From an uncultured Azospirillum sp. (GTDB taxonomy: Bacteria; Pseudomonadota; Alphaproteobacteria; RF32; CAG-239), in contig UQAB01000001.1 in the NCBI GenBank assembly GCA_900538765.1, positions 75,679 to 139,678 on the forward strand: DNA of 64,000 nucleotides. Reading direction: 5' to 3'. The notes beneath the pieces are model-generated. The model saw only the letters and a list, made by a program, of their open reading frames with translations, was not told the origin of the DNA and made no database searches. The translations under genes were made by a program, and so were the position numbers. This document shows, in pieces, positions 12,971 to 59,706 of this stretch. Position 1 is the first letter of the stretch; the number at the start of each line of letters is the position of its first letter.

Positions 12971-14152
12971 TTACTTTGTCAGCTCTACCGTATCCTGAGC
13001 AATAACCAATTCCTCGTTTGTCGGAATAACAAAGACCTTAACTTTGGAATCCGGTGTTGAAATTTCAATTTCTTCACCGCGCTTGTTGTTGGCTTCATCA
13101 ACCAGCTTGATGCCTAGATAAGACAGACGCTCACACAGCATTTTACGCAGCAGCGGTGAATTTTCGCCGATTCCCGCCGTGAAAATTATCGCATCCACAC
13201 CGCCCAGAACGGCAATATAAGAACCGATAAAACGGATAATCGTATGAACATAAACTTCCATCGCCGTTTTAGCTTTTTCATCACCGGCCAGATACTTCGC
13301 TTCAACGTCACGGTTATCGGAGAAACCGCTCAACCCCAACATACCGCTCTGCTTGTTCAGCAAGTCGTTGACCTCGTCAACCGTCTTGCGCTGATACTTC
13401 ATGATATGCAGCGGAATATAAGGATCAATATCGCCGCAGCGTGTCCCCATCATAATTCCGGCCAACGGCGTAAAGCCCATGGATGTATCGCGGCATTTGC
13501 CGTGGTCAACGGCAGAAATGGAAGCACCGTTGCCTAAATGGCAGGTAATAAACTTACCGTCGCATCCCAACAGTTCCGCCGCCCGGCGGGCAACATACTG
13601 ATGAGAAGTCCCGTGAGCGCCGTAACGGCGAATCTGATGCGCTTCATATTGTTCAATCGGCAGTGGATAAAGATAAGCTTCTTTAGGCATACTCTGATGA
13701 AAAGCAGTGTCAAAAGCGGCAACCTGTTTAATATTCGGCAAAGCGTTTTTAACCGCCTTAATTCCCAAAACCGCCGCCGGATTATGCAGCGGAGCCAAAA
13801 TCGACAGCTCATCAATTTTCTTCAAAACCTCATCCGTAATCAAAACCGACTTGTCAAAGAAACTGCCGCCCTGAACCACACGATGCCCAACACCGTCCAA
13901 CTCGTCAAGACTCTTCAGAGCACCGTTCAAAAGCAGATTAAGAACTTCCCTGATAGCTTCGTTGTGAGAAGGCAAAGCAACATCTTTAATAATTTTGTCG
14001 CCGTCACCGATTTTAATACTGACAAAAGAACCGTAAATACCGATACGTTCGGCATTGCCTTTTGCTATAACTTCATATTTATCGCCATCAACATTAAACA
14101 ACTGATATTTCAAAGAAGACGAACCTGAATTAAGTACTAATATTTTTTTCAT
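12971..14152 (-). CDS. ackA: acetate kinase
   Basis: MKKILVLNSGSSSLKYQLF and later AckA motifs. Start moved to the internal ATG (M48 of the ORF-track ORF). Confidence 0.9.
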   Translation of the reverse strand: MKKILVLNSGSSSLKYQLFNVDGDKYEVIAKGNAERIGIYGSFVSIKIGDGDKIIKDVALPSHNEAIREVLNLLLNGALKSLDELDGVGHRVVQGGSFFDKSVLITDEVLKKIDELSILAPLHNPAAVLGIKAVKNALPNIKQVAAFDTAFHQSMPKEAYLYPLPIEQYEAHQIRRYGAHGTSHQYVARRAAELLGCDGKFITCHLGNGASISAVDHGKCRDTSMGFTPLAGIMMGTRCGDIDPYIPLHIMKYQRKTVDEVNDLLNKQSGMLGLSGFSDNRDVEAKYLAGDEKAKTAMEVYVHTIIRFIGSYIAVLGGVDAIIFTAGIGENSPLLRKMLCERLSYLGIKLVDEANNKRGEEIEISTPDSKVKVFVIPTNEELVIAQDTVELTK

Positions 14153-14185
14153 ATAAACAATCCTAAAAAACAATTCAAATAGTAT

Positions 14186-14460
14186 ATTTTGCTCGCAATT
14201 TCTGCACTGGTACCCCAAAATACACATTTCCAAGAAATGGTGAAGTTTGAGTCGAGTAGTAGGCGTCAAGGGCAGAAAAAGCGCAGTGTACAATGGCTAA
14301 GTAAAACTGTAACCAACGTTACAGTTTTATCTGTAACATCTCAGAAAATCTTAGTGAGTTAAGCTGTGACAACTGCTGCAACGAACTTAGATTCCTGAGC
14401 TAGTACATGAGCATTTTTCTGTCCCGCTGACAACGCACTAATCGACCATTACACCCCCTA
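14186..14460. repeat. degenerate family-A repeat copies: a 3' half-element, then a copy whose core is split by a ~108-bp insert
   Basis: ...TTTGCTCGCAATTTCTGCACTGGTACCCCAAAATACAC is the 3' half. Then AATGGTGAAGTTTGAG...GCGCAGTGTACA, the insert with hairpin AAACTGTAACcaacGTTACAGTTT, and ...GCTAGTACATGAGCATTTTTCTG. Confidence 0.6.
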
Positions 14461-14583
14461 AAAAATGGTGGAGTTTGAGGCTAATAGTAAGAAACAAGAG
14501 AAAATGCGAGGGAGTGTACATAGAAGTACATGACCGAACATTTTGCTCGCAGTTTCTGTACTAGTAGCCCAAAATACACCATT
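14461..14583. repeat. family-A structured repeat, intact copy
   Basis: AAAAATGGTGGAGTTTGAGGCTAATAGTAAGAAAC...GGGAGTGTACATAGAAGTACATGACCGAACATTTTGCTCGCAGTTTCTGTACTAGTAGCCCAAAATACACC. Termini are imperfectly complementary and inner stem AAAATG/CATTTT flanks the core. Confidence 0.7.
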
Positions 14584-14584
14584 T

Positions 14585-15583
14585 TTACGCTTGCAAACAA
14601 GTTATAGCAATAACCCCTACAATATCCTCAACCAAAGCCCCGCGGGACAAATCGTTGACCGGCGCATTCAATCCCTGCAATAAAGGACCATAGGCATCAC
14701 AACCGCCTAAACGCTGCAAGAGTTTATAACCAATGTTTCCAGCCTCAAGGCTTGGAAAAATCAAAACGTTAGCCTGTCCGGCAACATCGCTGCCCGGCGC
14801 TTTTTTCTTGGCGACAACACCATCCAATGCGGCATCGGCCTGCAACTCGCCGTCAAGCTTGATATTGAGTTTTTTATATTCTTCTGTCTGCAAATCTGCC
14901 TTGGCCATTTCTACGGCTCTCTTGACCTTGTCAACCCGCTCGCCCTTGCCAGAACCGTAAGTCGAATAAGAAAGCATAGCAACTTTCGGCTCAAAACCAA
15001 ACTTAAGAGCACTTTCGGCGGCATCCAGTGCAATATCGGCCATTTCCCTGTCCGTCGGATCAATAACAATACCGCAGTCAGAAAGCAAATATGGCTTATC
15101 CCCGAAAACCAGCAGGAAGAAAGAAGAAACCGCACGGCCTTTTTTAGCGGATTTAATAATCTGCAAAGCCGGACGCACCGTATCCGCCGTTGAATGATTG
15201 GCGCCGGAAACCATACCATCGGCATGACCGGATTTAATCATCAGCGTCCCGAAGTAATTATAGTTCAAAGCCAACTTTGCCGCATCTTCTTCCGTCAGAC
15301 CTTTGTCCTTGCGCAAGTCATACAAAAGTTTGGTATATTCGGCCAGCCGCGGAGAGTTTTCCGGCTTAACAATCTCGATTCCCTCCAGGCTCCATCCCTG
15401 CTTGGCAAAATGAGCCTTAATTTCGGCCTCATCTCCCAAAATAACCAGCTTGGCAACTTTTTCAGCGGCAATAAGATGTGCGGCTTCCAAAATCCGCATA
15501 TCTTCGCCTTCTGGCAAAACAATCGTTTTGTTCTTCAACTTGGCCTGTTCCATCAGGCTCTGCAAATATTTGTTATAAGACAT
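14585..15583 (-). CDS. pta: phosphate acetyltransferase (short Pta/Ptb family)
   Basis: MSYNKYLQSLMEQAKLKNKTIVLPEGEDMRILEAA... with a Pta C-terminal domain. Start at the internal ATG with SD AAGAAAAGG. Confidence 0.85.
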   Translation of the reverse strand: MSYNKYLQSLMEQAKLKNKTIVLPEGEDMRILEAAHLIAAEKVAKLVILGDEAEIKAHFAKQGWSLEGIEIVKPENSPRLAEYTKLLYDLRKDKGLTEEDAAKLALNYNYFGTLMIKSGHADGMVSGANHSTADTVRPALQIIKSAKKGRAVSSFFLLVFGDKPYLLSDCGIVIDPTDREMADIALDAAESALKFGFEPKVAMLSYSTYGSGKGERVDKVKRAVEMAKADLQTEEYKKLNIKLDGELQADAALDGVVAKKKAPGSDVAGQANVLIFPSLEAGNIGYKLLQRLGGCDAYGPLLQGLNAPVNDLSRGALVEDIVGVIAITCLQA

Positions 15584-15761
15584 TGATACAACCTTTTCTT
15601 TCGTTATAAGACAGTTGCCATCGCCCGGTGACAACCGATTTCTACCCATAATAAACTATGCTTCGCGCTAATTGTCCATAAAAAACTTTTGATTTTTTAT
15701 TGCAAATAGAATAACATCAACTAAATTCTAATAAACTTAATCATTTTGCAAAGGGAAAAAC

Positions 15762-18393: not shown

Positions 18394-18410
18394 AAAACAA
18401 ATTCAAGAGC

Positions 18411-18580
18411 CTACATACAAACAATACACGAGCGAAAGAATTACAAGCATGACGCCAACATCAAAATAACCTTAGCTCCTAAAAAGGGTGTGCTGCGCCG
18501 TAATTCTTGAGCGACGTGTACACAAACAGTACACAAGCGAAAGAATTACAAGCATGACGCCTTTTTTTAGGAGCTAAGGG
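18411..18580. repeat. family-B long palindromic repeat (two GAAAGAATTACAAGCATGACGCC arms around core CGTGTACACAAACAGTACAC)
   Basis: Duplicated arm at ~18428-18457 and ~18531-18560. Outer inverted repeat CCTTAGCTCCTAAAAAGGG / CCTTTTTTTAGGAGCTAAGG. Middle stem GTAATTCTT/AAGAATTAC. Its 3' end overlaps the stop of the methyltransferase gene. Confidence 0.6.
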
Positions 18581-29480: not shown

Positions 29481-29612
29481 TTAGCCGCTGTAAAAGTTTG
29501 GAGTTTGAGACTAGTAGTAAGAAACTAGAGAAACCGCGACAGGAGTGTACACAATAGTACATGACTTAGCGGTTTACTCGCTGTTTCTGTACTAATAGCC
29601 CAAAATACGAAC
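29481..29612. repeat. family-A structured repeat, single copy
   Basis: CTTAGCCGCTGTAAAAGTTTGGAGTTTGAGACTAGTAGTAAGAAAC...AAACCGCgacaGGAGTGTACACAATAGTACATGACttaGCGGTTT...GTTTCTGTACTAATAGCCCAAAATACGA. Inner stem AAACCGC/GCGGTTT. Confidence 0.65.
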
Positions 29613-32516: not shown

Positions 32517-32605
32517 ATAAAGAGGTGTGCTGCGCAGCATAAATTTGACGACGTGTACAACAAACAGTACACGAGGAGAATTTATGCAAGCATGACACCT
32601 CTTTT
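32517..32605. repeat. family-B long hairpin repeat
   Basis: AAGAGGTGTGCTGCGCAGCATAAATTTgacgaCGTGTACAacaaacAGTACACGaggagAATTTATGCAAGCATGACACCTCTT has nested stems and the same core as 18411..18580. Confidence 0.55.
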
Positions 32606-39649: not shown

Positions 39650-40140
39650 AAAAAACTTGGAGTTTGAGGTCAATAGTAAGAAACTAGAGAAAATGTGAGG
39701 GAGTGTACATAGAAGTACATAACCGAACATTTTACTCGCAGTTTCTGTACTAGTGACCCAAAATACGAGTTTTTCAAAATTCACTTTTAGGAGAGCAGAT
39801 AGAGTAGTTTCCAGGTGCGAGAAAAATTCTAGTGTACAGAGAAGTACATGAATTTTTTGAGACACCCTCTCCTAAAAATGTTTTCAAAAAAACTTGGAGT
39901 TTGAGGTTAATAGTAAGAAAACAGAGAAAATGCGAGGGAGTGTACATAGAAGTACATGACCGAACATTTTACTCGCAGTTTCTGTACTAGTAACCCAAAA
40001 TACGAGTTTTTTAAAATTCACTTTTAGGAGAGCAGATAGAATAGTTTCCAGGTGCAAGAAAAATTCTAGTGTACAGAGAAGTACATGAATTTTTTGAGAC
40101 ACCGTAAAACTGCTCTAGATGCCTCATAAAAGTGAATTTT
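39650..40140. repeat. two tandem ~245-bp composite repeat units (family-A element plus a second hairpin element) filling the rpsO-pnp intergenic region
   Basis: Units at ~39652-39893 and ~39892-40140. Each has AAACTTGGAGTTTGAGGT(C/T)AATAGTAAGAAA...GGGAGTGTACATAGAAGTACAT(A/G)ACCGAA...CCCAAAATACGAGTTTTT. Then TTTTAGGAGAG...TAGTGTACAGAGAAGTACATGA...CTCTCCTAAAA. ORFs 39527..39865 and 39884..40102 are artefacts of the repeat. Confidence 0.7.
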
Positions 40141-43506: not shown

Positions 43507-44031
43507 TCAAAAGTTCGTTAATATCGGACGGATAAAGGCTTCATCCGCGGAAAAGGCATCATCTTCTTTAGCCAAATTCCAATAATATAAAAACGCCCCC
43601 AATCCCTTTCGGGAAGTCCAATAGTATCTAAGAACTTTCAGCGGCTGCCCGCCGATTTCCCTCATTGCGGCATTAATACCCCCAAAATGCGCATTAATGC
43701 ACTTCCAAATATCCTTGTCTGCCAAAATATCGTTTCGACCACAAAACGAATGCTGATTACAATATCCTTTAACACAATTCCGATTAACTTTGCATTCAGA
43801 ATCCGCCAATGCAATTATATAACAGCAAAAGGCGATTCCGACTGGTGTTCGGCCGGACATATCTTCTTTGTAAGGACTAATCAAACCATCAGAATAAACA
43901 ACACGGAAAGCATATTTTTCTTTTCTTCGGACATAACGCCAAAAACGGGAAAAAATCCCATGTTGATAAAAAACTGTAAAAACATTGTCATCATCACGAC
44001 ATAAACAAGGAGAGTCTTTTTCTGTTTTCAT
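43507..44031 (-). CDS. family protein (WxSS-motif, DUF1566/Lcl-C-terminal-like?)
   Basis: ...RYYWTSRKGLGAFLYYWNLAKEDDAFSADEAFIRPIL. Cassette upstream: TTGACTTTTGTCTAGCC...ATTATTAACTTAATAAAAAAATATAATTATG. Confidence 0.45.
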   Translation of the reverse strand: MKTEKDSPCLCRDDDNVFTVFYQHGIFSRFWRYVRRKEKYAFRVVYSDGLISPYKEDMSGRTPVGIAFCCYIIALADSECKVNRNCVKGYCNQHSFCGRNDILADKDIWKCINAHFGGINAAMREIGGQPLKVLRYYWTSRKGLGAFLYYWNLAKEDDAFSADEAFIRPILTNF

Positions 44032-44110
44032 AATTATATTTTTTTATTAAGTTAATAATATTTTTTCAACCCAAACCCTACCACAGGCTAGACAAAAGTC
44101 AACAAAAAAA
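44032..44110 (-). promoter_or_regulatory. family-type promoter plus AU-rich leader
   Basis: Conserved TTTTTTTGTTGACTTTTGTCTA. Confidence 0.45.
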
Positions 44111-44140
44111 GCTCCGAGTTTTAGCTCGGAGCTTTTGTTA

Positions 44141-44269
44141 TTAATCAGAAACTTCCGTCTTTTTCTTTTTTGCTTCTTCCTCAGCACAAAACTGCACCAA
44201 ATCATCAACTAAAAATCCAGCTGTTTCTAAACTGTCTTTAATACTTTGCAAAAATTCCTCTCTTTTCAT
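44141..44269 (-). pseudogene. 42-codon truncated paralog of the 51085..51696 gene (N-terminal domain only)
   Basis: Manual translation gives MKREEFLQSIKDSLETAGFLVDDLVQFCAEEEAKKKKTEVSD*. The paralog begins MEKEKFLQSIKETLEAAGFLVDDLVQYCAEKE... The upstream cassette is retained but the -35 reads TTGGCT instead of TTGACT. Too short for the ORF track. Confidence 0.5.
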
Positions 44270-44345
44270 AATTATATATTTTAAAAATTAATAATACTTT
44301 TTCTCTCTCATTACTGCAATCTAAACAAAAGCCAACAAGAAAGGT
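44270..44345 (-). promoter_or_regulatory. degenerate family-type promoter plus leader
   Basis: CTTGTTGGCTTTTGTTTAGA...AGTATTATTAATTTTTAAAATATATAATTATG. Confidence 0.4.
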
Positions 44346-44375: not shown

Positions 44376-44819
44376 TCATGAAAGACTGTTCATGCGCCGC
44401 ACCGGTCGGATAAAATTCGTTTCCCGGTTCAGGTGGCCGTTTTCGGCAGAATCCGGATAAACAAAAACCAACTCGTCAGGATTGTTCATCCATACTGTAT
44501 CCGTCCACACCGCACCGCGTCCGATACGGTCACCGCCAAGACTGACAATAAATTGGCAAAGCTCCTCAAACACCGGATGAATTGAAAGCCAAAACTCTTT
44601 AATTCCCAAATGACAGGGCTTGCCGTCAATCTTAACCGTCTTTACAATCTCCTTAGCTTCCGCAGGGGTATGCCACTTGCGGTCTTCTTTCAAAGAAATG
44701 GCATAACCGTTATAAATCACGGCTTCAACCTTTTTGTCCGGCAGCAAATCATGAGAAATTTCACCGCCAAGATACAAAATTGCAAACTTCTCGTTCTTTT
44801 GAAATTCTTTCTTTTCCAT
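44376..44819 (-). CDS. family protein (DUF1566/Lcl-C-terminal-like?)
   Basis: ...VKIDGKPCHLGIKEFW...SLGGDRIGRGAVWTDTVWMNNPDELVFVYPDSAENGHLNRETNFIRPVRRM aligns with the C-terminus of the 51085..51696 protein. Cassette upstream with TTGACT-16-TATAGT. Confidence 0.45.
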   Translation of the reverse strand: MEKKEFQKNEKFAILYLGGEISHDLLPDKKVEAVIYNGYAISLKEDRKWHTPAEAKEIVKTVKIDGKPCHLGIKEFWLSIHPVFEELCQFIVSLGGDRIGRGAVWTDTVWMNNPDELVFVYPDSAENGHLNRETNFIRPVRRMNSLS

Positions 44820-51084: not shown

Positions 51085-51696
51085 TTAAGATAATTCAGAC
51101 AAATCCAGCACCGGATGAACAACGTAGTTGCCGTACTTATTGCGGTAGTCCACGCCGCCCCAATCAGCGCCAATAAGCGTACAGAAGACCCACGCGTGGT
51201 AGCCGTCATACTCGGACGACGACCAATACCATTTCCCCTGCACCACTATTGTATCACCGCCAAGGCTAATCAACAAATTATCAAGCGCTTTTTTCTGTTC
51301 CTCACAGCTACTCATCACTTTTTTCCAGAATCCAATTTTTCCGGCGCTGCAAGCATGACCTTCTATTTTAATTTCACGACAATACTTCACAACTTCTCTC
51401 CACGGCACCGTCCTTGAAGAATCATGTAAGGTGATAAGATGATTCTCAAAAATAACGCCCAATGGCTTTTTGCCTTCAAGCGGAACCCATGACCGAACCA
51501 TACCCTCATACATAACTTCAAAAGGAAATCTTTCCTCGTTCTCTTTTGAAGAAACACCAACGACAGAAACGTCACTTGCTACAGCATTAATAGCCGGTAC
51601 CTCCTTTTCAGCACAATATTGCACCAAATCGTCAACTAAAAACCCTGCCGCCTCCAATGTCTCTTTAATACTTTGTAAAAATTTTTCTTTTTCCAT
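51085..51696 (-). CDS. family protein: N-terminal domain plus DUF1566/Lcl-C-terminal-like domain
   Basis: ...GKWYWSSSEYDGYHAWVFCTLIGADWGGVDYRNKYGNYVVHPV matches the hallmark YWSST...AW.v.f..G......yvRcV ending of DUF1566/FISUMP-type domains. No signal peptide. Confidence 0.5.
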   Translation of the reverse strand: MEKEKFLQSIKETLEAAGFLVDDLVQYCAEKEVPAINAVASDVSVVGVSSKENEERFPFEVMYEGMVRSWVPLEGKKPLGVIFENHLITLHDSSRTVPWREVVKYCREIKIEGHACSAGKIGFWKKVMSSCEEQKKALDNLLISLGGDTIVVQGKWYWSSSEYDGYHAWVFCTLIGADWGGVDYRNKYGNYVVHPVLDLSELS

Positions 51697-51775
51697 AATT
51701 ATATATTTTAATTAATAATAAATTTCATATTCCTACTCTATCACGCATTAGACAAAAGTCAACAAAAAAACATCT
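51697..51775 (-). promoter_or_regulatory. family-type promoter plus AU-rich leader (reference copy)
   Basis: Reverse complement reads TTTTTTTGTTGACTTTTGTCTAATGCGTGATAGAGTAGGAATATGAAATTTATTATTAATTAAAATATATAATTATG. Confidence 0.5.
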
Positions 51776-51819
51776 AAACCATTCATCTGCTTATACCGCT
51801 GCTAATCCGCCTTAATCCT

Positions 51820-52255
51820 AGCCGTAGTAAAAAGTTCAGAGTTTGCGGCAGATAATAAGAATCTCGGAAAAAGACGAAGGGAGTGTACATAGAAGTACAT
51901 GACCGAGTATTTTTTCAATGTTCTGTATTAGATGCCCAAAATACGCAGCAACAAACCCAAACCCCGACCTTAGCCGCTGTAAAAAGGTCGGAGTTTGCGG
52001 CAGATAATAAGAATCTCGGAAAAAGACGAAGGAAGTGTACACAGAAGTACATGACCGAGTATTTTTCCGAGATTCTGTATTAGGTACCCAAAATACGCAG
52101 CAACAAACCCAAGCCCCGACCTTAGCCGCTGTAAAAAGGTCGGAGTTTGCGGCAGATAATAAGAATCTCGGAAAAAGACGAAGGGAGTGTACACAGAAGT
52201 ACATGACCGAGTATTTTTCCGAGATTCTGTATTAGGTGCCCAAAATACGAGCTTT
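51820..52255. repeat. three tandem ~152-bp family-A-variant repeat units between infB stop and the 51085 gene promoter
   Basis: Each unit is ...CCGACCTTAGCCGCTGTAAAAAGGTCGGAGTTTGCGGCAGATAATAAGAATCTCGGAAAAAgacgaaGGGAGTGTACACAGAAGTACATGACCGAGTATTTTTCCGAGATTCTGTATTAGGT(A/G)CCCAAAATACG... ORFs 51836..52204, 51883..52083, 51970..52287, 52035..52235 and 52187..52393 are repeat artefacts. Confidence 0.7.
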
Positions 52256-54757
52256 TTACAATGTTGCGGCGATTTCCTCCACCTCATAACACTCTATAAA
52301 GTCACCGACTTGAATATCGTTATAGTTTTCAAAACTCATACCGCATTCATAGCCGGATTTGACCTCTTTAACATCTTCCTTAAAGCGTTTTAGCTGAGCC
52401 AAAGCGCCATCATGAATAACAACATTGTCACGCAGCAGACGAACCTTGGCACCACGCTTGACAAAGCCTTCCGTCACCATGCAGCCGCCGACTTTACCGA
52501 CACCGGTAATATTGAAGACATTGCGGATTTCGGCATAACCGATAATCTTTTCTCTCAATTCAGGCGACAACATACCTTCCAAAGCCTTCTTAATGTCATC
52601 GGCCACATCATAAATAATCGAGTAATAACGAATATCCACGCCGTCCTGACGCGCCATGTCACGGGCATGCGGAATAGCACGGACGTTAAAGCCGATGATA
52701 AAGGCATTGGAAGCCTTAGCCAGAGTAACATCGGAATCCGAAATAGGACCAACGGCAGAATGCAAAATCTGAACGCTGACTTCCTCGTTGGACAACTTCT
52801 TAATTGTACCTTCAATAGCCTCAATAGAACCTTGAACATCAGCCTTGATAATAACCGGCAAATGCTTAACTTCGCCTGACTTAATCTTATCAAGCATCTG
52901 TTCCATTGCAGACTTGGCACTCTTAACCAGTTTAGCGTCACGTTCTTTGCGAATACGATAACCGGTAACTTCCTTAGCCTGGTTTTCGTCCTTAACAATG
53001 ACAAAATCGTCACCGGCTGCCGGCGTTCCTTGCAAACCGAGAATTTCAACTGGGGTCGCCGGACCGGCTTCCGTCATCTTCTTGCCATGTTCGTTAAACA
53101 TAGCGCGGACATGTCCCCACTCCTTACCGGCAATACAAATATCACCAACGCGCAGCGTACCGTTCTGAACCAGAACCGTTGCAACAGAACCGCGGCCTTT
53201 TTCCATCTTGGCTTCAACAACCGTACCCGAAGCCATGCGATTCGGGTTGGCTTTCAAATCCAGAATTTCCGCCTGCAACAGAATAGCTTCAACCAGCTTA
53301 TCAATGTTAATACGCTTCTTAGCCGAAACTTCTGCGCTCAAATATTCACCGCCCATATCTTCAACGGCAATGCCATGTTGCAATAAAGCGGTCTTCACCT
53401 TCATCGGATCAGCGCCCGGAAGGTCAATCTTGTTAATCGCAACCACAATCGGCACTTCTGCAGCCTGAGCATGGCGGATTGCCTCAACCGTCTGCGGCAT
53501 AATGCCGTCATTGGCAGCAACCACCAGAACCACAATATCGGTAACCTTTGCACCGCGAGCACGCATTTCTGAAAAGGCCTCGTGTCCCGGCGTATCAATA
53601 AAGGCAATCTTTTTGCCTCCGGCAACTTCAATCTGATAAGCACCGATATGTTGCGTAATACCACCAGCCTCGCGAGAAGCAACGTTTGTTTCGCGCAAAG
53701 CATCCAATAACGAAGTCTTACCATGGTCAACGTGTCCCATAACCGTAACCACCGGCGCTCTCGGCAGCAAATCGGCGTCCGTATCTTCCGGACCGGTCAA
53801 CCCCTGCTCAACATCGCTGTCGGCAACTCGTTTAAACTTATGTCCGAATTCCTCAACCACAATCTGCGCCGTATCGGCATCAATCGGTTGGTTAATCGTA
53901 GCCATAACCCCTAAAGCCATCAGCTTTTTAATAACTTCGGCACCTTTTTCTGCCATACGGTTAGCCAATTCCTGAACCGTAATAATTTCAGGAATAACGA
54001 CCTCTTTAACAATTTTTTCTGTCGGCTGCTGAAAAGCCTGCTGCTTCGGCTGTTTTTTCTTAAACCGACGCCGGCCGCCGCCAAAACCATAATCATCGTC
54101 ATCTTCATCAACACTGCTCAATGTATGCAGGTTGACTTTTCCGCCGCGCCGCGGTGTTTCAAAACTGCGCTTCATAACTTTTTTGCGCTCTTGTTCAAAA
54201 ACATCATCTTTGCTCAAAGATCTTTCGGCAACTTTTTTAAACTTATGATTATGGGAATCTTCTTCCTCGTCTTCGTCCTCTTCATCGAAATCGCGGGACT
54301 TCTTTTCCTTAATCTTCTGAATACGATCATCCTCAGCCGGTGAAACCGCTGCCGTTACCACAGGACGAACAGCTGCTTTTTTCTCCTCCGCCGCCTTTTT
54401 AGCTTCTTCGGCTTCCCGTTGAGCCTTTTCCTGCTCTTCCTGTTCACGTCTCAGCTGGCGCTGGCGTTCCTTCTCTTCTTCCTCCTGCCGGCGTTTGGCA
54501 TCATGCTCTTTAGCCTCGGCAATAAGCCGCAGCTTTGCAGCTGTCGCTTCGTCAATTTTAACTTTAGGCTCTTCCGTTTCGCTGCGATTGGCGATAACCC
54601 TCTTCTTTCGCACTTCAACCTGAACAATCTTCTTGCCGTCATTATTGTGCGCCCGGGAACCGTCGCTTACATTTTTGAGTGTAAGGGTAGATTTACCTGA
54701 TAATGTTAATTTGCTTTTTGCATTATCTTCTGTCATTAATTTTTTTCTCCGTATCAT
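52256..54757 (-). CDS. infB: translation initiation factor IF-2
   Basis: GTPase domain [19 protein letters not shown]...DTPGHEAF...NKID and the IF-2 C-terminal domains. An alternative start is the ATG at 54736. Confidence 0.95.
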
Positions 54758-57816: not shown

Positions 57817-59592
57817 TCATATTTTTTTTTTATATTTCAAAACAAAATCATTAACAAGGTCATAAATCTTCTGCTTGTAACATTTTTGATTGTATAAAGT
57901 TTCTATATCAATATCTTTATTCCCAACATATATTTTTATTCGTGAACCCAGCTTGACATCAATATCTTCGTCTAAAGCTAGAAAGTCTAAATTAAAAATT
58001 TCAGCATATTGTTTTTTAATCTTTTCTTTAAGCCTCAAATAATCTTCATTTACTAACAAATATTTTAGCATAAATTCATTTCCAAAAAAATCCTTGTATT
58101 TTGAATAATCATTACTAGCAATACTAGCGCACTTATCATTTGTTATATCACAAGGATACAAACTTAAATCAATCTTTTCGCTTTTATTTATAACAAACCA
58201 ACATGTCAATCCTCCATCAGAAGGGCGTTCTTTAAAATATTCTTCACTCAAGGTTCTGTAATATGCATAATAATCTCTTAGGCATTCACCGTTTTCTACA
58301 TATTCAATTTTCTTTGATAGAGGAGCTTGAGAATTAGTACTTCCATCTTTTACCAAAGAAATTGTTGCTGGTTGAACATCCTTATAAATAATAAACGTTT
58401 TATTACGATCTAAATAATTTTTCTTATTTTCAATGACGATATTCTTGTCTTTCTTCAACGTTCTATATTCTCTTAATTTGTCTCCAGCAAAATCCTTCTC
58501 ATCAAAATAGTAAAGCTTATCTCGTACTTTAATTGAGGCATGGGGAGGTAAACCAACAAACTCTTCTTTATCTGAATTTTGTCGATAAAAAAAGAACTCG
58601 GCATTGTAATTAAACAATTCATATTTTTTGTTTTGAAATGATAAACTTGCTATCGTATACGGAGAATTATTGGTAATTATATACTCAACTTCAAAATCAT
58701 TGTAATTAGAGATAACACGAGAAAACTTAACCTCAACCTGAGACTTCAACTCCTCAATTTTATCACTGAAAGGTTTCGCTATTAGCTTTCCATCAGTCAT
58801 AAAATTAAATGTCTGCTCTATAAGATTATTTATTTTCTTTTGTTTTTCTGAACTACAAATATTCCCATCAATTTCCGTTGCAATTTCATCAGTTTTATAA
58901 GCCATTGCTGCTTGATAATCTTTACTTAATTTTCTTAAATCATCTAAAAAATCCATTCCCAAATTTTTGTCATTAGTAAGAATATCTTTATCAGATGGGG
59001 AAATATTAAAAATTTCTTCTGTATACTCTTCTTCATTTTCTAAAATCTCAAGATAAGAAGAAATAATTTTTTTTACTTTCTTTCTGTTGTTTAACTCTTT
59101 TAACTTTTGTTCCTCCCTTTTCTGTTTCATATCCTTATTATACGTTTTACATGAACGATAATTACTAATTTCATTCATTCTCGACAAACTTAATTCTGTT
59201 TTTAATACATTTATATCCTTTTGCAGAGGGTTATCGTCATAAACATTTGCCAAAAACAAGCTATAATGTTCTATTACGGTTTCCATGTCGCCTAAAACAA
59301 TATCTTTAATATTATCACATACGTTTGACACTTCCATATTAGCAATCTCTGTTTTTATCTCTACTAAGCTAGATATTCTATTTGAAAGTACAATCCGTGA
59401 TGTTACAGAAGCAATTTTCTCATACTCAGAAAATAATTTTATTTTCTTGTTTATAAATTCTTTTTCCCCTGCTGGCTCGTAAAAATATTTATAATAAGAA
59501 TAACAAATACTTCCACAAATTATTATTGTTAACAAGGCTATTAAAGATAGTAAAATTATTTTCTTTAATTTCAACATTTTCTTTTCTTCCAT
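57817..59592 (-). CDS. AT-rich-island hypothetical lysine-rich single-pass membrane protein (~592 aa)
   Basis: Start at MEEKKMLKLKKIILLSLIALLTIIICG with SD GGGGTGA 3-4 nt upstream. N-terminal TM then a large K/N/E/Y-rich domain. Very low GC compared with neighbours. Confidence 0.55.
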   Translation of the reverse strand: MEEKKMLKLKKIILLSLIALLTIIICGSICYSYYKYFYEPAGEKEFINKKIKLFSEYEKIASVTSRIVLSNRISSLVEIKTEIANMEVSNVCDNIKDIVLGDMETVIEHYSLFLANVYDDNPLQKDINVLKTELSLSRMNEISNYRSCKTYNKDMKQKREEQKLKELNNRKKVKKIISSYLEILENEEEYTEEIFNISPSDKDILTNDKNLGMDFLDDLRKLSKDYQAAMAYKTDEIATEIDGNICSSEKQKKINNLIEQTFNFMTDGKLIAKPFSDKIEELKSQVEVKFSRVISNYNDFEVEYIITNNSPYTIASLSFQNKKYELFNYNAEFFFYRQNSDKEEFVGLPPHASIKVRDKLYYFDEKDFAGDKLREYRTLKKDKNIVIENKKNYLDRNKTFIIYKDVQPATISLVKDGSTNSQAPLSKKIEYVENGECLRDYYAYYRTLSEEYFKERPSDGGLTCWFVINKSEKIDLSLYPCDITNDKCASIASNDYSKYKDFFGNEFMLKYLLVNEDYLRLKEKIKKQYAEIFNLDFLALDEDIDVKLGSRIKIYVGNKDIDIETLYNQKCYKQKIYDLVNDFVLKYKKKI

Positions 59593-59706
59593 AATCACCC
59601 CGCTTATTCGAAAAACCATTAATCGAAAAATACTTCCAATAAAAAGACACAAACAACAAAAAAATGAAAAACTAAATCTATATTAATCATCCATTATACA
59701 CAACAT

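Follow-up and report, generated by a model that had tools for sequence, protein, structure and literature searches.

In a 64,000-nt stretch of DNA from an uncultured Azospirillum sp. (contig UQAB01000001.1, positions 75,679 to 139,678), hereafter called the window, the spacer between the genes pta and ackA contains a long hairpin repeat that carries at its tip a highly conserved additional segment of 109 nt (14293-14401), hereafter called the module. We show that this module is a discrete and portable unit; its breakpoints lie at two conserved half-cores that form the tip of the hairpin, it is found in several arm backgrounds and it is bordered by no duplication. In the pta-ackA spacer it represents a natural presence/absence polymorphism between near-identical strains. 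The explanation that we favour, and to which we assign roughly even chances, is that the 109 nt constitute an optional apical module of a mosaic family of long hairpins and that they are moved by recombination at the half-cores.

A preliminary description of this DNA had reported one repeat copy with its core split by an insert of about 108 bp containing a perfect hairpin. Both observations hold, the insert measuring 109 nt and its hairpin (HP1, 14302-14329) having 12 bp, and the insert is unique in the 64-kb window. The motif GTGTACA-N(3-8)-AGTACATGA otherwise occurs eight times in the window, always on the + strand and always with a gap of 4 nt (not the 5 nt previously stated), versus zero occurrences expected from shuffled sequences; each of these motifs forms the tip of an imperfect hairpin of ~115-125 nt. 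In the interrupted copy, termed copy A, the half-cores are 109 nt apart versus the 4 nt of all eight intact window copies, and the junctions read ...GCGCAGTGTACA/ATGGCTAAG...TTCCTGAGCT/AGTACATGAGC... Its arms are complementary on both sides of the insert and the whole copy folds into one stem with a three-way junction, with folding energies of -78.0 and -81.7 kcal/mol for the two strands (z -5.5 and -6.2, respectively).

Alleles of the spacer were gathered by querying public assemblies for proteins identical to AckA and Pta, which returned contigs of human-gut metagenomes and metagenome-assembled genomes (MAGs) of the same organism, including one human-gut assembly identical to the window over 21 kb. 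The spacer (window 14153-14584, 432 nt) has five lengths among the alleles L001-L010 and L040-L044, namely 78, 204, 310, 327 and 432 nt, which are accounted for by the presence or absence of copy A, of a neighbouring canonical hairpin (copy B) and of the module. The 78-nt alleles join a right-arm remnant (window 14186-14225) to the end of copy B, whereas the 310-nt alleles miss copy B and thereby expose the full ends of copy A (AAATGGTG...CACCATTT); both lengths turn up in unrelated strains. The 327-nt alleles (L006 of GCA_948786125.1, L041 of GCA_948573425.1 and L044) are the same as the 432-nt allele except that the module is absent: the arms are 100% identical and the net difference is 105 nt. 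The empty core of these alleles reads GTGTACA-CACC-AGTACATGA, with a CACT loop in L044, and this 4-nt loop is not kept in the filled allele; it has been replaced, not split. The earlier expectation that excision of the insert should re-form a contiguous core is thus borne out, for it leaves a normal core and empty alleles exist in nature, here as well as at the atpG-atpD locus described below.

An assembly artefact, or the chance pairing of words resembling half-cores, can be considered refuted. The identical filled sequence is present in more than 15 independent assemblies produced by different assemblers and the empty allele is also present in at least three; moreover, the half-cores sit within complementary arms and the core pattern is not expected randomly. 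Only the general risk that repeats are misassembled in metagenomes speaks for such an artefact.

The module is not confined to pta-ackA. When the HP1 pattern was scanned against 185,579 species representatives of the GTDB, a single true match was found (L021, a deer-cecum alphaproteobacterial MAG with the module between the genes of a HAD hydrolase and lepA), together with 16 chance palindromes. This pattern is too narrow, given that one locus of the window species has a different HP1, and the variant hairpin probably accounts for the failure of the scan to retrieve that species. Scanning metagenomes for a central 20-mer of the insert yielded eight true matches, distributed between pta-ackA (four), the region upstream of ruvC (L030), atpG-atpD (L031) and a spacer that separates an oxidoreductase gene from one for an M29 peptidase (L034 and L035). 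There are consequently at least five contexts, with genes confirmed by Pfam. In all five the module, of 105-109 nt, lies between half-cores in one orientation, its left junction being ACA/ATGGCTAAG and its right junction CCTGAG-CT-AGTAC, or CCTGAG-A-TGTAC in L021. The host arms belong to at least three subfamilies: those called type A in the window, L030 and L031, canonical arms in L034 and a third kind in L021. All true matches of the two collection scans lie in cores, and a covariance model of the module (R1) detected no further, diverged or out-of-core copies in ~417 kb of fetched DNA. Likewise, blastn with the composite element found no match in plasmids and phages, scans of viral contigs for the insert 20-mer and the core returned nothing, and a search of protein collections for further copies via spurious open reading frames (ORFs) gave no candidates. 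The copies that the preliminary description proposed to look for therefore exist outside the window, and always between half-cores.

Two of these loci provide additional allelic evidence. The AtpG protein of L031 led to 10 further contigs, and the atpG-atpD locus that they define probably belongs to the window species. Eight contigs are empty, with a 342-nt spacer, type A arms and the intact core GTGTACA-CAGC-AGTACATGA, and the filled alleles are those of L031 (448 nt) and L069 (444 nt, where the order of the units is changed). Among the contigs reached through the M29 peptidase of L034 is CAQFEJ010000048.1 of GCA_948786125.1, which places the M29 locus in the window species; this genome is empty at pta-ackA (L006) and filled at the M29 locus (L083), so that one genome may be empty here and filled there. 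Similarly, the samples ERZ28598511, ERZ28657989 and ERZ780157 are all filled at pta-ackA and have atpG-atpD, on another contig, empty in one case and filled in two. Such mixed combinations in one MAG and three samples indicate that the state of the module is set independently at each locus. The loci in, or attributed to, the window species are therefore three (pta-ackA, atpG-atpD and the M29-peptidase spacer), with at most about three per genome.

The M29 locus shows other kinds of variation. In L077-L084 (~3590-3998, equivalent to ~10700-11100 of L034) an extra 47 nt splits AGTAC/ATGAC and is bordered by the partial repeat GAGCT(AG)TAC...GAGCTTAC; this piece possibly represents another small insertion into that tip. 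L079 (3587-4205) and L085 (3587-3686) carry between the same outer flanks, TTAGCCGCTGTAAAAG...CTTTTTACAG, a different hairpin that is free of the module and has the core GTTTACA-TAGT-AGTAAATGA, a case of whole-element replacement. L079 also contains ~200 nt of another repeated sequence rich in G+C (GTCATCCTCGG...). The right base of the host hairpin differs, too, between L077-type and L078-type alleles.

Comparable exchanges are seen in the family at large. The spacer downstream of infB (window 51819-52274) consists of three tandem units of 152 nt, each comprising a canonical hairpin and a linker of ~40 nt, and measures 255, 407, 559, 711 or 863 nt across strains, equivalent to one to five units as in a variable-number tandem repeat. 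The rpsO-pnp spacer (window 39650-40103), which in E. coli is a site of RNase III processing, contains two units of 237 nt, each with a canonical hairpin and a shorter 'type B' hairpin having the same tip, and is 424, 533, 652 or 661 nt long across strains. No event of +105 nt was seen at either spacer among the strains compared. The family thus behaves as a mosaic, its copies and alleles exchanging hairpin bases, entire hairpins, tandem units and HP1.

The module itself is composed of two hairpins. HP1 (TAAAACTGTAAC-caac-GTTACAGTTTTA) is weakly terminator-like on either strand, owing to its flanking A- and T-runs, and was not called by a terminator scan. In L034, L035 and L077-L084 its stem is wholly exchanged for AAAAAGCACCA-aagtaa-TGGTGCTTTTT, while the A/T-run flanks are kept. 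The tip stem of HP2 (AGCTGT/ACAGCT) is intact in L030, L031 and L034 and mismatched in the window lineage, where it reads ACTGCT; HP2 has few substitutions, and these break pairs without compensation (ACTGCT in the window, AGA in L031 and AAT in L028). Variation in the insert is too scant to reveal covariation, since the changes in HP2 mostly disrupt pairs and HP1 varies as a block. The window module shares 97-98% identity with the copies of L030 and L031, and within these type A hosts the arms are only 73-89% identical; between the other types of host arms, the corresponding values are 81-93% for the module versus 44-65% for the arms. Scores with R1 are 135 bits for the window module and 112-135 bits at the other loci. 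Of note, the heptamer CTGTAAC occurs twice and GTTACAG once in window 14306-14337, so that GTTACAG can pair upstream (forming HP1) or downstream (forming a 7-bp stem with the loop TTTTAT) in mutually exclusive hairpins; the alternative pairing is not kept in copies with the variant HP1.

Strong conservation of this kind raises the question of function. The module could be a functional RNA of the - strand, either a small RNA or a cis-acting processing or terminator element, conserved by selection and compatible with either route of spread that is considered below; HP2 would be followed by a conserved single-stranded linker (AUGUUACAGAUAAAA) and by HP1 with a U-run, and the host stem could serve as a processing stalk, for instance for RNase III. 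The right-hand gene is on the - strand with its 3' end toward the element in all five module contexts, as it is for every canonical window copy, and hence the - strand is the transcribed one, including within the pta-ackA and atpG-atpD operons. This orientation, the architecture typical of small RNAs, the replacement of HP1 by an unrelated stem of the same shape with A/U runs retained, the invariance of the linker and of the base of HP2 and the better conservation of the module than of type A arms all agree with a functional RNA. Yet the module is dispensable, for near-identical strains differ at two loci in having or lacking it, the HP1 pattern retrieved it from only one of the 185,579 species representatives, and its HP2 substitutions break pairs. 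Rfam 15 gave zero matches on the window at the gathering threshold, and with E values up to 10 on 14100-14650 only chance-level matches to microRNAs and long non-coding RNAs (E > 0.4). Furthermore, no promoter-like site was found on the - strand, HP1 is not called as a terminator and the G-U asymmetry between the strands is slight. Canonical copies fold better as the + strand and type A copies slightly better as the - strand, which does not decide the strand of function. We consider a functional RNA unlikely on balance.

How the module has come to occupy the same tip in different hairpins is the central issue. One possibility is a non-autonomous element mobilised in trans by an enzyme specific for the site or structure of the hairpin apex, akin to IS110/ssr9 systems, insertion sequences (ISs) that target repetitive extragenic palindromic (REP) sequences or IS200/IS605. 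The preliminary description had proposed along this line that the core is the target of a nested element or a homing-type insertion. That proposal is supported in part, by the constancy of the site, for the module has the same position and orientation in at least five contexts, at least three unrelated arm subfamilies and at least two species. The module is also far better conserved than its host arms, the cores of empty sites are intact and in L021 the dinucleotide AT borders both sides (ACA-AT-GG...GAG-AT-GTAC), as expected for a recombinase acting on a dinucleotide core. There are precedents for a small-RNA module that enters palindromic repeats alone (PMC12288879) and for REP-specific insertion sequences (PMC1525189).

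The detailed signatures of mobility are nevertheless adverse to such an element. The junction dinucleotides are unequal (AT...CT) in the four other contexts, that is in the window, L030, L031 and L034, and it is the fixed position within a palindromic repeat, with the same junction in five contexts, that resembles IS110-type insertion. An empty site of IS110 style, obtained by removing the element and one core dinucleotide, does not equal the observed loops CACC, CACT and CAGC. The comparison with IS200/IS605 elements points both ways: the module shows no duplication, a constant left flank TACA/ and two hairpins, but HP2 reaches the end of the element and excision of the module does not regenerate the observed empty sites. 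Neither simple insertion nor precise excision, therefore, fits the loops. Comparison of filled and empty alleles at pta-ackA and atpG-atpD revealed none of the target-site duplications that the preliminary description had suggested looking for, the loop CACC, CACT or CAGC being replaced instead. The 109-nt insert has no terminal inverted repeat, and its ends (ATGGCTAAG.../...TTCCTGAGCT) are complementary over only ~5 nt (TGGCT/AGCTA). The many dispersed copies per genome of miniature inverted-repeat transposable elements are missing as well, with one copy in the window and three loci in, or attributed to, the species, never outside a core. Finally, neither a transposase or recombinase domain nor a homing endonuclease was found in the window (Pfam on 30 ORFs plus precomputed annotation), and no transposase, including those of DEDD type, lies next to the module copies in the fetched flanks. 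A trans-mobilised element appears, on this evidence, plausible though not likely.

A bolder variant would combine mobility with function: the module would be a portable cassette for a small RNA and settle specifically in the apical loop of the host hairpin, either through an enzyme that recognises the tip by structure or RNA guide or with the stem as a processing stalk. We regard this combination as improbable. If an enzyme did recognise the tip formed by GTGTACA and AGTACATGA, this would represent a new targeting mechanism; if the host stem acted as a double-stranded processing stalk, it would provide a bacterial analogue of the 'RNA in a hairpin tip' arrangement of primary microRNA transcripts.

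The direction of change bears on a further alternative, namely an ancestral long form, comparable to the 155-bp form that Correia elements have beside their 107-bp form, from which the short forms with a 4-nt loop would have arisen by internal deletion, the composite of arms and module being what spreads. In neighbour-joining trees built on 21, 6 and 3 kb, the empty L006 is nested within a clade of otherwise filled strains, and filled pta-ackA alleles are also present in the more divergent strains L007 and L010. The strain tree thus favours loss of the module rather than its gain, in agreement with an ancestral long form, as is the finding that the most divergent strains are filled at both pta-ackA and atpG-atpD. 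Three of the five contexts have homologous type A arms, and copy A matches L030 and L031 as a unit, with 86-90% identity. The dimorphism of Correia elements, which depends on a 50-bp internal segment, offers a parallel (PMC2229807). Against an ancestral long form, the same module is found on canonical arms (L034 and L077) and on the other arms of L021, and it is much less diverged than the arms, opposite to what would be expected from co-inheritance under equal constraint. The short loops (NAGA, CASY) are not consistently sub-strings of the ends of the module, and neither CACC nor CACT derives from the ends of the insert. An origin by deletion between the GTACA direct repeats on either side was also considered and rejected; it would yield GTGTACATGA, which is not observed. 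Moreover, the consensus for integration host factor (IHF; WATCAANNNNTTR), a feature of the Correia segment, is absent from the module even with one mismatch allowed. An ancestral long form thus seems to us an unlikely account of these alleles.

Recombination at the half-cores, the explanation that we prefer, fits the data no less well than transposition or homing. The module would be gained or lost as a unit with breakpoints within the two half-cores, whereby the loop is replaced and nothing is duplicated. The putative route is an event between family members at the half-cores, be it short-homology recombination, gene conversion or template switching, to which ordinary homologous exchange of alleles between strains would be added. 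Such recombination explains why the loop is replaced and the junctions are identical, and it accounts for the low copy number, for changes that appear reversible and for the parallel swaps of HP1, hairpin bases and whole hairpins. As a possible consequence, transcripts reading through pta-ackA or atpG-atpD would acquire two additional hairpins, one of which is weakly terminator-like, and filled and empty alleles may then differ in mRNA stability or in the coupling of the operon.

Several points weigh against half-core recombination. The homology offered by the half-cores is only ~7-17 nt, short for RecA-dependent conversion, and none of the DNA reached contained a donor copy whose loop is CACC or CACT. 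The pta-ackA and atpG-atpD modules have three fixed locus-specific differences, which implies no recent conversion or exchange between these loci, and the origin of the first filled copy is left unexplained by the proposed route. The polarity of gain and loss is insecure because the 78-nt and 310-nt alleles are homoplasious on the pta-ackA tree, indicating frequent recombination. At atpG-atpD, where there is no outgroup, the empty alleles form a near-clonal group from which the two filled lineages are separated by 40-60 substitutions per 3.7 kb, and this locus is assigned to the window species on the grounds that the window organism co-occurs in 4 of 11 samples, no assembly being shared.

The host hairpins form a previously undescribed repeat family of uncultured gut Alphaproteobacteria. 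Its members are found inside operons or downstream of genes, at pta-ackA, rpsO-pnp, downstream of infB and at atpG-atpD. The apex follows the consensus G(T/C/T)GTACA-N4-AGTAC(A/G/A)TGA and the base is conserved, too. The core stem covaries (GTGTAC/GTACAT, GCGTAC/GTACGT and GTTTAC/GTAAAT), and in type A arms the changes of the middle part are compensated while base and tip are conserved. We considered the half-cores of L030 as decayed and then abandoned this view, since GTTTACA/AGTAAATGA is a compensated core variant that is intact in L079 and L085.

Other observations extend the description of the family. A third subfamily of hairpins, 'type C', is found at window 18409-18561 and 32553-32574, with the tip GTGTAC-ACAAACA-GTACAC and flanks of A-runs and T-runs; it is also present in L001, L002, L008 and L028. 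The motif TTAGCCGCTGTAAAA lies directly left of several hairpins (window 29481-29495, 51970-51984 and 52122-52136, as well as L030, L034 and L079), and makes up an outer inverted repeat together with CTTTTTACAG on their right; its count in the window is 3 versus 0 expected by chance. The parts of the composite repeat in the pta-ackA spacer are listed in Table 1.

Table 1. Coordinates of the features in and around the pta-ackA spacer of the window.
Feature	Position	Strand	Basis or remark
ackA (acetate kinase), downstream gene of the pta-ackA pair	12971..14152	-	PF00871 on identical product; start ATG 14150-14152 exactly as in public gene calls
Half copy, right-arm remnant of canonical hairpin repeat	14186..14225	+	Direct-repeat family D6, 90% identity with 14540-14579
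Copy A, type A hairpin repeat with apical module (composite element)	14236..14455	+	Single long stem plus three-way junction
Left half-core GTGTACA	14286..14292	+	Sequence read
Apical module (insert), 109 nt in place of 4-nt loop	14293..14401	+	Missing from L006, L041 and L044 despite identical arms
Right half-core AGTACATGA	14402..14410	+	Sequence read
HP1, perfect 12-bp hairpin	14302..14329	.	Between A-run and T-run
HP2, imperfect hairpin of ~60 nt (CTCAG...CTGAG)	14340..14399	.	Rest of insert
Copy B, canonical intact hairpin repeat, core GTGTACA-TAGA-AGTACATGA	14461..14585	+	Fold -54.1 kcal/mol, z -10.3
pta (phosphate acetyltransferase), upstream gene, 3' end toward repeats	14585..15649	-	PF01515

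Elsewhere in the window, repeated 5' regions (D5, D7 and D8, with up to 82-88% identity; 44017-44343 and 51608-51770) precede small ORFs of the - strand (43507-44031, 44376-44819 and 51085-51696) that belong to no Pfam family and may be paralogous genes sharing a promoter and leader. A 600-aa ORF (57817-59619), also without a Pfam family, is located in the one segment of the window that is strongly AT-rich (GC 0.30 at 58-60 kb versus ~0.45 elsewhere) and may have been acquired horizontally.

The location of the module is notable, for the most conserved feature of the family, the tip, is where a highly conserved extra module is added or removed. The chief value lies in the matched filled and empty alleles that occur naturally in two central operons, pta-ackA and atpG-atpD, which makes an effect on operon coupling or mRNA stability testable. 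It lies as well in a clean system for studying the movement of modules among palindromic repeats, which has long been debated for REP, BIME, ERIC and Correia-type elements. In practical terms, the spacers can be used as markers for strain typing, by the length alleles of 78-432 nt and by the copy number of the 152-nt units, in hosts that are abundant uncultured Alphaproteobacteria of the human gut.

A module in a hairpin tip falls among the modular, dimorphic palindromic repeats with an optional segment, or among nested insertions into such repeats. Correia elements have long and short forms that differ by a 50-bp internal segment at a fixed place (PMC2229807). These Neisseria elements, also called NEMIS (~107/155 bp), are likewise intergenic hairpin repeats of 100-160 bp in two size classes that are co-transcribed with their neighbours, and type A arms with and without the module at pta-ackA and atpG-atpD display the same sort of dimorphism. 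They differ in having 24-bp terminal inverted repeats, TA duplications, hundreds of copies and an IHF site in the segment, which the module lacks, whereas here the segment is located exactly in the apical loop, is rare (at most about three loci per genome) and is far better conserved than the arms.

The ssr9 module of ISPpu9, a member of the IS110 family, spreads alone in REPs with the transposase acting in trans (PMC12288879), and REP sequences are the targets of IS1397, ISKpn1 and IS621 (PMC1525189). As in our case, a small module or IS occupies a single fixed position in a palindromic repeat and lacks classical inverted repeats. In those systems, however, the enzyme is defined, the end boxes are conserved and both junctions share one dinucleotide; here the window and the fetched flanks contain no such enzyme, the dinucleotides differ in four of the five contexts and the loop is replaced.

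ERIC/IRU and YPAL sequences of enterobacteria are imperfect palindromes of ~127-168 bp in transcribed intergenic regions, with effects on mRNA that depend on orientation (PMC2229807). The hairpins described here are similarly imperfect palindromes in transcribed intergenic regions, but they have no sequence relationship with ERIC, which has TA duplications. Longer ERIC variants reportedly contain internal insertions of ~70 bp at specific sites. Such insertions have not been reported at the hairpin tip or as common to several arm subfamilies. Modular behaviour is also known from the BIMEs of E. coli and the pneumococcal BOX elements (A-B-C), in which interchangeable modules vary in number and content by locus and strain, occur in tandem and reside in operon spacers. 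Their modules are arranged side by side, whereas in the hairpins of these gut Alphaproteobacteria one module is nested in the apex of another, thus generating a three-way junction.

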